A stretch of 64,000 nucleotides of DNA, from assembly GCF_013315695.1 (NCBI RefSeq), contig NZ_CP054353.1; one strand, 5' to 3'. Within the stretch, counting starts at the first letter, position 1. Each line of letters starts with the position of its first letter. A model generated the notes under the pieces. That model worked only from the letters and a program-made list of their open reading frames with translations. It ran no database searches and had not been told where the DNA came from. Shown here in pieces: positions 549 to 42,092 of this stretch. This DNA is from Escherichia coli. Its GTDB lineage: Bacteria > Pseudomonadota > Gammaproteobacteria > Enterobacterales > Enterobacteriaceae. The position numbers and the translations under genes were made by a program.

Positions 549-1475
<927 letters not shown>

Positions 1476-23992: not shown

Positions 23993-24076
<84 letters not shown>

Positions 24077-38933: not shown

Positions 38934-40034
38934 ATGTCAAATGCTCAAGAGGCGGTAAAAACCCGCCACAAGGAGACTTCGCTTATTTTCCCGGTTCTGG
39001 CGCTGGTAGTGCTGTTCCTGTGGGGAAGCAGCCAGACACTACCAGTGGTCATTGCCATCAATCTTCTTGCTCTAATTGGTATTTTAAGTAGCGCCTTTAG
39101 TGTTGTCCGTCATGCGGACGTATTAGCCCATCGCCTGGGAGAACCTTACGGTTCGCTTATTCTTAGCCTTTCAGTGGTTATTCTTGAAGTCAGTTTGATT
39201 TCAGCTTTAATGGCAACCGGCGACGCCGCGCCAACGCTAATGCGTGATACGCTCTATTCAATCATTATGATTGTTACCGGTGGGCTGGTTGGCTTTTCAT
39301 TATTGTTGGGCGGACGCAAGTTTGCCACCCAATATATGAATCTGTTTGGTATCAAGCAGTATTTAATTGCGCTGTTCCCCCTGGCGATAATCGTACTGGT
39401 ATTTCCAATGGCTCTGCCTGCGGCGAATTTTTCAACCGGTCAGGCGTTACTGGTAGCATTAATTTCTGCGGCAATGTATGGCGTATTTTTGCTGATCCAG
39501 ACCAAAACGCATCAAAGTTTGTTTGTCTACGAGCACGAAGATGACAGTGATGATGACGACCCGCACCACGGTAAACCGTCTGCCCATAGCAGCCTGTGGC
39601 ATGCTATCTGGTTGATTATCCATCTGATTGCCGTTATTGCAGTCACCAAAATGAACGCCAGCCCGCTGGAGACATTGCTCGACAGCATGAATGCCCCTGT
39701 CGCCTTTACTGGCTTCCTGGTGGCTCTGTTGATTCTGTCGCCGGAAGGTTTAGGTGCGTTAAAAGCAGTGTTGAACAACCAGGTCCAGCGCGCGATGAAT
39801 CTGTTCTTTGGTTCAGTGTTAGCAACCATTTCGCTTACCGTACCTGTCGTCACGCTAATTGCCTTTATGACGGGTAACGAATTGCAGTTTGCACTTGGTG
39901 CGCCAGAAATGGTGGTGATGGTGGCCTCTTTAGTGCTGTGCCATATCTCCTTCTCCACCGGACGTACTAACGTGCTCAATGGCGCAGCGCATCTGGCACT
40001 GTTTGCCGCCTATTTGATGACGATATTTGCCTGA
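38934..40034 (+). CDS. chaA: Ca2+/Na+:H+ antiporter ChaA
   Basis: ORF 38847..40034; start at MSNAQEAVKTRHK after GGGATAACC gives 366 aa; polytopic CaCA-family membrane protein. Confidence 0.9.
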   Translation: MSNAQEAVKTRHKETSLIFPVLALVVLFLWGSSQTLPVVIAINLLALIGILSSAFSVVRHADVLAHRLGEPYGSLILSLSVVILEVSLISALMATGDAAPTLMRDTLYSIIMIVTGGLVGFSLLLGGRKFATQYMNLFGIKQYLIALFPLAIIVLVFPMALPAANFSTGQALLVALISAAMYGVFLLIQTKTHQSLFVYEHEDDSDDDDPHHGKPSAHSSLWHAIWLIIHLIAVIAVTKMNASPLETLLDSMNAPVAFTGFLVALLILSPEGLGALKAVLNNQVQRAMNLFFGSVLATISLTVPVVTLIAFMTGNELQFALGAPEMVVMVASLVLCHISFSTGRTNVLNGAAHLALFAAYLMTIFA

Positions 40035-40163
40035 CAGTTATATCTCCTCCGATGACGAAAATCGGGGGAGATAATATAAATTCCTGCTTATTGTATTTCT
40101 TCATACTACCTGAACAGGTCGTTAATCAGAATTGCGAGCCTGTACCAGAACCTGCACGAAACC

Positions 40164-40698
40164 ACTGCAACAGCTGTTGAAAAGCCGGAATGTACTCTTT
40201 ATTGCAAACATTTCAGGGATGAAGTGAAGATGAATTGAGACGTAGTATCCACACCAAGCCGGCGTTATCCGGTGAGGCGCAATGTTGCGGGGGCTTTATC
40301 CCTGGTGGCATTGGTTGCTGGAAAGAGAAAACCCCCGCACGTTGAGAGGTACAACCTGACAACAGAACGGGGGCTAATCTTGAACCACAACAATTCAAGA
40401 ATAGCCGCAAAATGTTGTCCTTACAACAAGGCGGCTATATGACGCTCGCGCAGTTTGCCATGATTTTCTGGCACGATCTGGCAGCACCGATCCTGGCGGG
40501 AATTATTACCGCAGTGATTGTCAGCTGGTGGCGTAACCGGAAGTAAGGTGAAAACGGGCGTCAGGCTGCCGTGATGGCAATATGCGCCCGAAACCGGCCG
40601 CAGGGGTAACAGCCTGCGGCCCTTTTTGTCTTTATCTCTTCTGCAAGTAAATATTGGCAACCCGAGCTGGAAGCATCATCCAGAGCACTCATGAAACG
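40164..40698 (+). repeat. LDR (long direct repeat) unit 1, ldr/rdl type I toxin-antitoxin locus
   Basis: 535-bp unit nearly identical to 40699..~41166 (a few SNPs); contains the ldr ORF and its terminator. Unit boundaries approximate. Confidence 0.8.
40439..40546 (+). CDS. ldr: Ldr small toxic peptide (35 aa), type I toxin
   Basis: Encodes MTLAQFAMIFWHDLAAPILAGIITAVIVSWWRNRK; below the length cut-off of the ORF track; followed by hairpin plus T-run terminator (40596..40627). Confidence 0.85.
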   Translation: MTLAQFAMIFWHDLAAPILAGIITAVIVSWWRNRK

Positions 40699-41166
40699 AC
40701 TGTAACAGCTGTTGAAAAACCGGAATGCACTCTTCATTGCAAACATTTCAGGGATGAAGTGAAGATGAATTGAGACGTAGTATCCACACCAAGCCGGCGT
40801 TATCCGGTGAGGCGCAATGTTGCGGGGGCTTTATCCCTGGTGGCATTGGTTGCTGGAAAGAGAAAACCCCCGCACGTTGAGAGGTACAACCTGACAACAG
40901 AACGGGGGCTAATCTTGAACCACAACAATTCAAGAATAGCCGCAAAATGTTGTCCTTACAACAAGGCGGCTATATGACGCTCGCGCAGTTTGCCATGATT
41001 TTCTGGCACGATCTGGCAGCACCGATCCTGGCGGGAATTATTACCGCAGTGATTGTCAGCTGGTGGCGTAACCGGAAGTAAGGTGAAAACGGGCGTCAGG
41101 CTGCCGTGATGGCAATATGCGCCCGAAACCGGCCGCAGGGGTAATAGCCTGCGGCCTTTTTTGTAT
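40699..41166 (+). repeat. LDR unit 2, ldr/rdl type I toxin-antitoxin locus
   Basis: Second tandem copy; ends just past the terminator hairpin (41131..41162), where sequence diverges towards kdsA. Confidence 0.8.
40974..41081 (+). CDS. ldr: Ldr small toxic peptide (35 aa), second copy
   Basis: Identical 35-aa peptide to the first copy, 535 bp downstream. Confidence 0.85.
   Translation: MTLAQFAMIFWHDLAAPILAGIITAVIVSWWRNRK

Positions 41167-41228: not shown

Positions 41229-42092
<864 letters not shown>

Follow-up and report, generated by a model that had tools for sequence, protein, structure and literature searches.

Between chaA and kdsA, the Escherichia coli window analyzed here (the whole stretch of 64,000 nucleotides from contig NZ_CP054353.1) carries what are very probably two tandem LDR copies, each of them a type I toxin-antitoxin module whose antisense RNA, Rdl, would block synthesis of the Ldr toxin. 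Every feature of the Ldr/Rdl family that can be checked in a sequence is present: the toxin profile, the antitoxin RNA model together with its position, the repeat unit and its locus, and the terminators. On these sequence grounds, the identification of the region as Ldr/Rdl is supported, with no observation at odds with it. The locus, the toxin, the antisense RNA and the variable copy number have been described already (since 2002), and the toxin is already annotated in RefSeq; the K-12 copies LDR-A, LDR-B and LDR-C are reportedly those described by Kawano et al. in 2002. As a discovery, the locus matters little, and its practical value lies in annotation. Mildly new, as hypotheses rather than discoveries, are a gene conversion tract, a toggling of the frame of a leader ORF, and pairing between the ldr ribosome-binding site and the 3' UTR.

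When overproduced, LdrD and LdrA of strain K-12 are toxic, with a drop in ATP, nucleoid condensation and growth arrest. Both proteins are single-pass helices of the inner membrane, and co-expression of the cognate Rdl relieves their toxicity through a block of translation (PMC4147584, PMC8309996, PMC12643268). Expression of K-12 ldrD/rdlD is documented, and the two RNAs form a duplex in vivo, which RNase III cuts (PMC7373196). The way in which Rdl represses ldr is still open according to a review (PMC8309996); the standing proposal invokes a mok-like leader ORF, called 'ldrX' (PMC4147584, PMC8167048). Enterobacterial genomes contain 2 to 10 Ldr/Fst genes each, as tabulated by Fozo et al. 2010.

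Comparison of the window with itself revealed that segments 40201-40609 and 40736-41144 match at every base over 409 bp, at an offset of 535 bp, and a repeat search of the window returned the same 535-bp spacing between the two LDR units. Such a repeat cannot be a product of chance. The identity profile at offset 535 extends the similarity beyond these cores, with 12 mismatches over the 485 bp of the two units. At the spacer of ~50 bp between them, which occurs once and resembles the internal junctions of K-12, identity collapses. The period of 535 bp, the homology to K-12 and the synteny of chaA and kdsA all correspond to an LDR repeat unit of ~530 bp. A sequence-only reading of the region had placed two near-identical 535-bp units between chaA and kdsA, starting at 40164. 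The placement holds, chaA ending upstream on the plus strand and kdsA lying downstream on the minus strand, and so does the number of units. The value of 535 bp, however, is the period and not the length of a unit, of which ~485 bp are conserved, and the high-identity zone of unit 1 begins ~19 bp earlier, at 40145. All features are listed in Table 1.

Table 1. Features of the chaA-kdsA region, in window coordinates, with the basis of each assignment
Feature	Position	Strand	Basis or remark
chaA (Na+/K+:H+ antiporter), left flank	38934..40034	+	ORF; mapped annotated chaA of NZ_LR898874.1
LDR unit 1	40145..40629	+	offset-535 identity profile; alignment with K-12 LDR-A/B/C
candidate ldr-1 -10 hexamer TAGTAT	40243..40248	+	by-eye inspection; inferred transcription start ~40255-40257
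rdl-1, 66-nt antisense antitoxin RNA	40326..40391 (5' end 40391, 3' end 40326)	-	Rfam RF01813 rdlD
candidate leader ORF (ldrX-like), unit 1	40380..40442	+	TTG start, 20 codons, TGA overlaps ldr ATG (ATGA)
candidate rdl-1 promoter	40398..40426	-	-35 TTGTAA (40426-40421), 17-nt spacer, -10 TATTCT (40403-40398); by eye, 8/12
ldr-1, 35-aa toxin CDS	40439..40546	+	Pfam PF13940; identical to WP_000170956.1
ldr-1 intrinsic terminator	40596..40629	+	stem 40596-40621, then T-run
inter-unit spacer, ~50 bp	40630..40679	.	offset-535 identity collapses; resembles K-12 internal junctions
LDR unit 2	40680..41164	+	offset-535 identity profile; alignment with K-12 LDR-A/B/C
candidate -10 hexamer TAGTAT, unit 2	40778..40783	+	by-eye inspection
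rdl-2, 66 nt, same as rdl-1	40861..40926 (5' end 40926, 3' end 40861)	-	Rfam RF01813 rdlD
candidate leader ORF, unit 2, same as in unit 1	40915..40977	+	sequence inspection
ldr-2, 35-aa toxin CDS, same as ldr-1	40974..41081	+	Pfam PF13940; RefSeq peptide match
ldr-2 intrinsic terminator	41131..41164	+	stem 41131-41156, then T-run
kdsA, right flank	41229..42083	-	ORF list; nearest RefSeq record

The toxin ORFs of the two units, ldr-1 and ldr-2, are identical, 108 bp each, and both translate to MTLAQFAMIFWHDLAAPILAGIITAVIVSWWRNRK. This peptide matches the Pfam profile PF13940 (Ldr_toxin) with an E-value of 2.9e-24, its residues 1-35 aligning with model positions 1-35 of 35, and it is 97% identical to K-12 LdrA/C, the sole difference named being A26V. 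When a 44-aa in-frame extension of the peptide served as the query of a homologue search, all 177 of the 177 named matches (E <=0.001) were Ldr proteins of Escherichia or Shigella. By analogy with the published work on K-12 LdrA and LdrD, the A26V peptide would be toxic as well. A more distant likeness exists to Fst, encoded by the RNAI-RNAII (par) locus of pAD1, which is likewise a small toxin made of one helix, in which a conserved Trp precedes a cluster of basic residues at the C-terminus; Fozo et al. 2010 suggested that Fst and Ldr are homologous. The antitoxins differ in their sites of pairing, which is the 5' leader for Rdl and the 3' ends for the Fst antitoxin. Membership in the Fst subfamily itself was considered and rejected (NCBIfam NF033608, 15.6 bits against a cut-off of 26), and the two toxins are related at the level of the superfamily only.

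Both ldr ORFs are followed by an intrinsic terminator whose stem contains 9 pairs, 8 of them G-C. The terminator scan returned 6 matches against 1.7 expected from shuffles, and four of these are located at the positions expected for the ends of ldr and Rdl. The promoters suggested here for ldr and rdl were found by eye and lie below the scanner cut-off of 9/12, the sigma-70 consensus scan of the region having returned no site at >=9/12. The counterpart of the candidate ldr -10 hexamer in LDR-D is TAGAAT, and it is at this hexamer that the homology between A-type and D-type units starts. The predicted ldr mRNA of ~373 nt would consist of a ~180-nt leader, the 35-codon ORF and the intrinsic terminator, and its predicted fold is unusually stable (z = -5.85). 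Expression of the two RNAs in this strain, expected for the family as a stable ldr mRNA and a labile Rdl, is presumed from that of the K-12 copies.

On the opposite strand, the Rfam model RF01813 (rdlD) was found twice, scoring 85.9 bits (gathering score 50) over model positions 1-66 of 66, with an E-value of 7.8e-18 for rdl-1. The rdl RNAs are perfectly complementary to the leader stretch that lies 48-113 nt ahead of the ldr ATG and leave the ldr ribosome-binding site uncovered. The fold of rdl-1 (-26.7 kcal/mol, z = -4.75) is the long imperfect hairpin typical of the family, with a free 5' tail, and the terminator scan places a terminator-like stem followed by a T-run at 40350-40331. Between the candidate rdl-1 promoter and the 5' end of rdl lie 6 nt, and the promoter overlaps the area just upstream of the ldr Shine-Dalgarno sequence. 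Since the two rdl genes are identical, either Rdl RNA should be able to silence both ldr mRNAs. Three elements anticipated in the sequence-only reading, namely a 35-aa hydrophobic peptide ORF, a hairpin/T-run terminator 3' of it and, opposite the 5' leader of ldr, a small antisense RNA, were found in each unit, and the rdl RNAs, left unmapped at that stage, now have coordinates on the minus strand.

A megablast search with segment 39900-41400 found matches in 5,425 of 5,426 complete E. coli genomes. The nearest record is that of strain MSB1_4I (NZ_LR898874.1), with 99.6% identity. Its RefSeq annotation shows two Ldr-family toxin CDSs between chaA and kdsA, both assigned to protein WP_000170956.1, which is identical to the peptide described here, and no rdl gene at the locus. 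In K-12 MG1655 the chaA-kdsA locus is annotated with three pairs, ldrA/rdlA, ldrB/rdlB and ldrC/rdlC, in agreement with the sequence-only reading. The alignment with K-12 that this reading had suggested for counting the units gave two here against three in K-12, with a mean column identity of 97% over the two window units and LDR-A/B/C. Position between chaA and kdsA, the 535-bp period, gene order, strands, terminators and the location of Rdl relative to ldr are all common to both strains. Besides their number, the units differ in that the K-12 copies diverge from each other at several positions, whereas the cores in the window are 100% identical.

Copy number was surveyed in 60 evenly spaced records out of 5,440 matching E. 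coli records. A single unit is present in 14 of the 60 (~23%) and two units in 17 (~28%), one of the latter with an IS insertion. Three or more units were deduced for 27 (~45%), which were counted in this way because the match reaches no further than the second unit and does not extend to kdsA, as is the case in K-12; the remaining 2 records are laboratory strains with rearrangements. The suggestion that copy number varies between strains is borne out by this sample, which includes records with a single unit, with two and with at least three. Unit 1 resembles K-12 LDR-C at its chaA-proximal 5' edge and an internal K-12 junction at its 3' end; unit 2 resembles an internal K-12 junction at its 5' end and the kdsA-proximal edge of LDR-A at its 3' edge. 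The two-copy state corresponds to K-12 minus one unit, and it fits unequal recombination between units, which could have proceeded in either direction.

Each unit contains a candidate leader ORF whose stop codon overlaps the start of ldr. In unit 1, the Shine-Dalgarno-like GGGGG (40370-40374) and the TTG start (40380-40382) both lie within the segment complementary to Rdl, and the TTG faces the single-stranded 5' tail of the antisense RNA. Across all eight A-type and D-type units compared, ACGGGGGC and CTTG are unchanged. The TTG frame is open as far as the ldr start in every unit examined, being either coupled to ldr through ATGA or fused with it. Coupling of the leader stop to the ldr start through ATGA is seen in this window and in K-12 A/B/C; independent 1-nt insertions bring the TTG in frame with ldr in LdrD-type units, in unit 1 of MSB1_4I and in one further E. 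coli unit. Such fusion predicts an extended Ldr of 55 aa, and Ldr proteins of 55 aa have been annotated by database gene callers. Another leader candidate is the in-frame ATG at 40412, which would give a 44-aa product; its codons correspond in LdrD-type units to an out-of-frame TTG ORF overlapping the ldrD start. The leader-ORF reading has its weaknesses: the TTG start is weak, the frame relative to ldr is not conserved, and the sequence of the peptide is variable.

The experimentally characterized member of the family and source of RF01813, E. coli LDR-D (ldrD/rdlD), has the same architecture as the units described here. Its Rdl stem, GGGGG/TTG leader motif, ribosome-binding-site region and 3'-UTR element are conserved. 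It differs in being a single copy at yhjV-bcsG, in its peptide, which is 57% identical, and in a 1-nt insertion by which the leader frame becomes continuous with ldrD and is not coupled to it through ATGA. A-type and D-type units share 77-90% identity in their non-coding parts and 68.5% in the CDS, and this excess of non-coding over coding identity argues for constraint at the RNA level. The consensus fold predicts pairing of alignment columns 161-196, which hold the ribosome-binding site and AUG, with columns 304-330 of the 3' UTR. The 3'-UTR segment of this pairing is nearly invariant between the paralogue groups, its substitutions all preserve pairs, and a compensatory change occurs in three sequences; covariation within the ldr mRNA fold is thin, with double changes at 2 of 107 pairs among eight closely related sequences. 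An exact 17-nt pattern from the ldr 3' UTR was too short for comparison with genome contigs and gave mostly chance matches in unrelated phyla, at least three useful loci (one from E. albertii and two E. coli-like) being present among the matches listed.

We propose that Rdl would pair with the leader motif GGGGG-N5-TTG through its single-stranded 5' tail and the first strand of the Rdl stem. The TTG would open the leader ORF, which is 20 codons long and overlaps the ldr start with its stop (ATGA), and the invariant 3'-UTR segment is predicted to keep the ldr ribosome-binding site and AUG locked by base pairing. With the ldr start locked by the 3' UTR and overlapped by the TTG leader ORF, ribosomes would therefore gain access to ldr mainly through translation of the leader ORF, and Rdl would close that entry. 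Cutting of the Rdl-ldr duplex by RNase III probably contributes. Together, the leader ORF, its frame and the pairing of the ldr start agree with the mok/hok-like 'ldrX' model of Gerdes and Wagner, which amounts to a fit and not to proof.

The model has its precedent in hok/mok/sok (plasmid R1 and chromosomal), likewise type I, where the antisense RNA is directed against the leader and not against the toxin ribosome-binding site. Common to both are the proposed upstream overlapping frame that delivers ribosomes and the long-range pairing predicted to hide the toxin start. The hok systems differ in their unrelated toxin family (Hok is ~50 aa long) and in 3'-end processing, which is not known to play a role in ldr. 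Membership of the units in hok/sok was rejected: on the ldr leader strand, Rfam RF01794 (sok) reaches 29.3 bits against a gathering score of 59, and the peptide is an Ldr.

Alternatively, Rdl might act mainly via RNase III cleavage and decay, or might block a 5' processing or standby step as in zorO or tisB, the leader ORF being idle. A ~21-nt product of RNase III has been mapped to the overlap of rdlD and ldrD; in rnc mutants the two RNAs are slightly more stable, and a shorter ldrD species is seen there only (PMC7373196). Control of zorO through processing of its 5' UTR (PMC5397157) provides a parallel for the second variant, and the lack of a conserved leader frame relative to ldr would be expected of an idle ORF. 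The shifts of half-life in rnc mutants were, however, termed slight (PMC7373196), and reviews list inhibition of protein synthesis as the mode of action of Rdl. The invariance of GGGGG and TTG within the Rdl target, and a frame that has no stop ahead of the ldr start in any unit examined, also speak against an idle leader ORF. We regard a mechanism of this kind as unlikely, although it deserves appreciable weight beside the closure of leader-ORF entry by Rdl.

The proposed entry through the leader ORF gains a further aspect from comparison with MSB1_4I. Over 41.5 kb, the window differs from this strain at 12 positions, and six of them fall inside 150 bp of unit 1 (40352, 40387, 40420, 40477, 40483 and 40501). 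At each of the six, unit 1 of the window has the state of unit 2, and in MSB1_4I the two units differ from each other at exactly these six core positions. Because the six changes cluster and all lead from the unit 1 to the unit 2 state, they bear the signature of a short and recent gene conversion tract, at least 150 bp and at most ~409 bp long, that would have made unit 1 match unit 2.

The identical 409-bp cores might instead be an artefact of assembly or polishing, in which reads of two slightly different units were merged. Consensus errors classically arise in tandem repeats of ~500 bp, the window departs from MSB1_4I exactly at those six core positions at which the two units of that strain differ, and a suspicious 1-nt deletion is present in a tRNA-Tyr gene elsewhere in the window. 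Merged reads, however, leave unaccounted the unit-specific flanking positions (40150-40200, 40610 and 40622), which remain distinct. The changes are moreover unidirectional within a contiguous 150-bp tract, as gene conversion yields, and the high similarity among the K-12 copies agrees with concerted evolution of LDR copies. We assign the artefact a low probability.

Gene conversion, if accepted, could also have had a regulatory consequence. Should the Rdl-masked TTG be the true ribosome entry, 1-nt indels would toggle a unit between the ATGA-coupled state and the fused 55-aa Ldr, and conversion would have switched unit 1 from fused to coupled. The proposal in this full form is rather doubtful. 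If it were true, the amount or the form of toxin made from unit 1 would change, and comparison of natural variants could settle how Rdl represses ldr. The frame-toggling leader ORF, the sequestration of the ldr start by the 3' UTR and the conversion tract thus present testable handles on the Rdl block of Ldr synthesis.

Two further views of the region deserve mention. The first is that the LDR units are decaying relics, transcribed little or not at all and devoid of toxin-antitoxin activity in this strain. It could draw on the failure of the scan to find a strong sigma-70 consensus and on a literature that is unclear about the physiological role of chromosomal Ldr. Decay is nevertheless hard to reconcile with the intactness of both ORFs, of both rdl genes (full model, 85.9 bits) and of all four terminators, or with regulatory non-coding parts that, across paralogue groups, are better conserved than the CDS; copies that share these promoter regions are expressed in K-12 (PMC7373196, PMC12643268). 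The probability of this view is very low.

The second, that the two identical 65-aa ORFs of the minus strand (40213-40410 and 40748-40945) encode real proteins, has a negligible probability: in every LDR unit examined their frame is open, with 73-103 codons between stops, which is ascribed to conservation of the opposite strand at the RNA level, but NCBIfam gave no match, RefSeq annotates them neither in K-12 nor in MSB1_4I, and a 1-nt deletion in K-12 LDR-C replaces the entire C-terminal half. Because the TTG start at 40410 precedes the 5' end of rdl (40391), and this RNA ends at ~40326 with a terminator that falls inside the ORF, the ORF is contained in no known transcript. These ORFs, whose coordinates are as originally reported, are by-products of the repeat, as had been supposed, and should not be called genes. 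PGAP did not annotate the two rdl genes in the nearest strain; their exact positions are now available.

Over 41.5 kb, the window and MSB1_4I, the nearest Escherichia coli strain, differ at 12 positions, half of which fall inside 150 bp (40352-40501) of LDR unit 1, the first of two tandem ldr/rdl type I toxin-antitoxin repeats between chaA and kdsA. All six of these differences turn unit 1 into the sequence of unit 2. The cluster indicates a putative gene-conversion tract or a repeat-polishing artefact.

A further difference from MSB1_4I lies in a tandem pair of tRNA-Tyr(GTA) genes. In the first copy, a C is missing from the 3' acceptor strand, which there reads CCCCCAC-ACCA, whereas the second copy and MSB1_4I have CCCCCACCACCA. 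Rfam scored the second copy at 53 bits and the first at 41 (Table). Either one tyrT/tyrV copy is truly defective, or the C was lost through a sequencing error.

The LdrD group is single-copy in K-12, whereas the genome labelled E. coli SCPM-O-B-8794 (L061, 7977-8834), a GTDB species representative, carries two LdrD-type units in tandem, 484 bp apart; this group has therefore been tandemly duplicated in some lineages as well. In one E. coli strain (NZ_CP148461.1, 2384293-2386894), the two-unit chaA-kdsA locus is broken by an insertion with an "integrase core domain" gene (an IS element), and the match is split into three pieces over 2.6 kb.

Within each LDR unit of the window, an in-frame ATG lies nine codons 5' of the accepted ldr start, with a predicted product composed of MLSLQQGGY followed by Ldr. 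Because Ldr calls of 44 and 55 aa are many in public databases, start-site annotation of the family is inconsistent. The ldr 5' leader weakly matches the Rfam "sok" model, at 29.3 bits (E 8.5e-4 in a 5-kb search), below the gathering score of 59. This match could be due to chance, or could be a faint remnant of a leader organisation that ldr shares with hok/mok/sok.

Features located in the window
Feature	Position	Strand	Basis
Alternative ldr start, in-frame ATG, 44-aa product	40412-40546; 40947-41081	+	ORF reading
Sub-threshold "sok" match, ldr 5' leader	40289-40441; 40824-40976	+	Rfam RF01794
tRNA-Tyr(GTA), first of tandem pair	23993-24075	+	Rfam match, 41 bits
isrC Hfq-binding sRNA, full length	619-741	+	Rfam RF01387, 145 bits

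The isrC gene sits within a prophage remnant adjoining kch (context 1-2500), with genes for tail-fibre, DinI-like and Arm-type integrase proteins and IS3. Among 5,426 complete E. coli genomes, only 26 contain 80% or more of these 2.5 kb.
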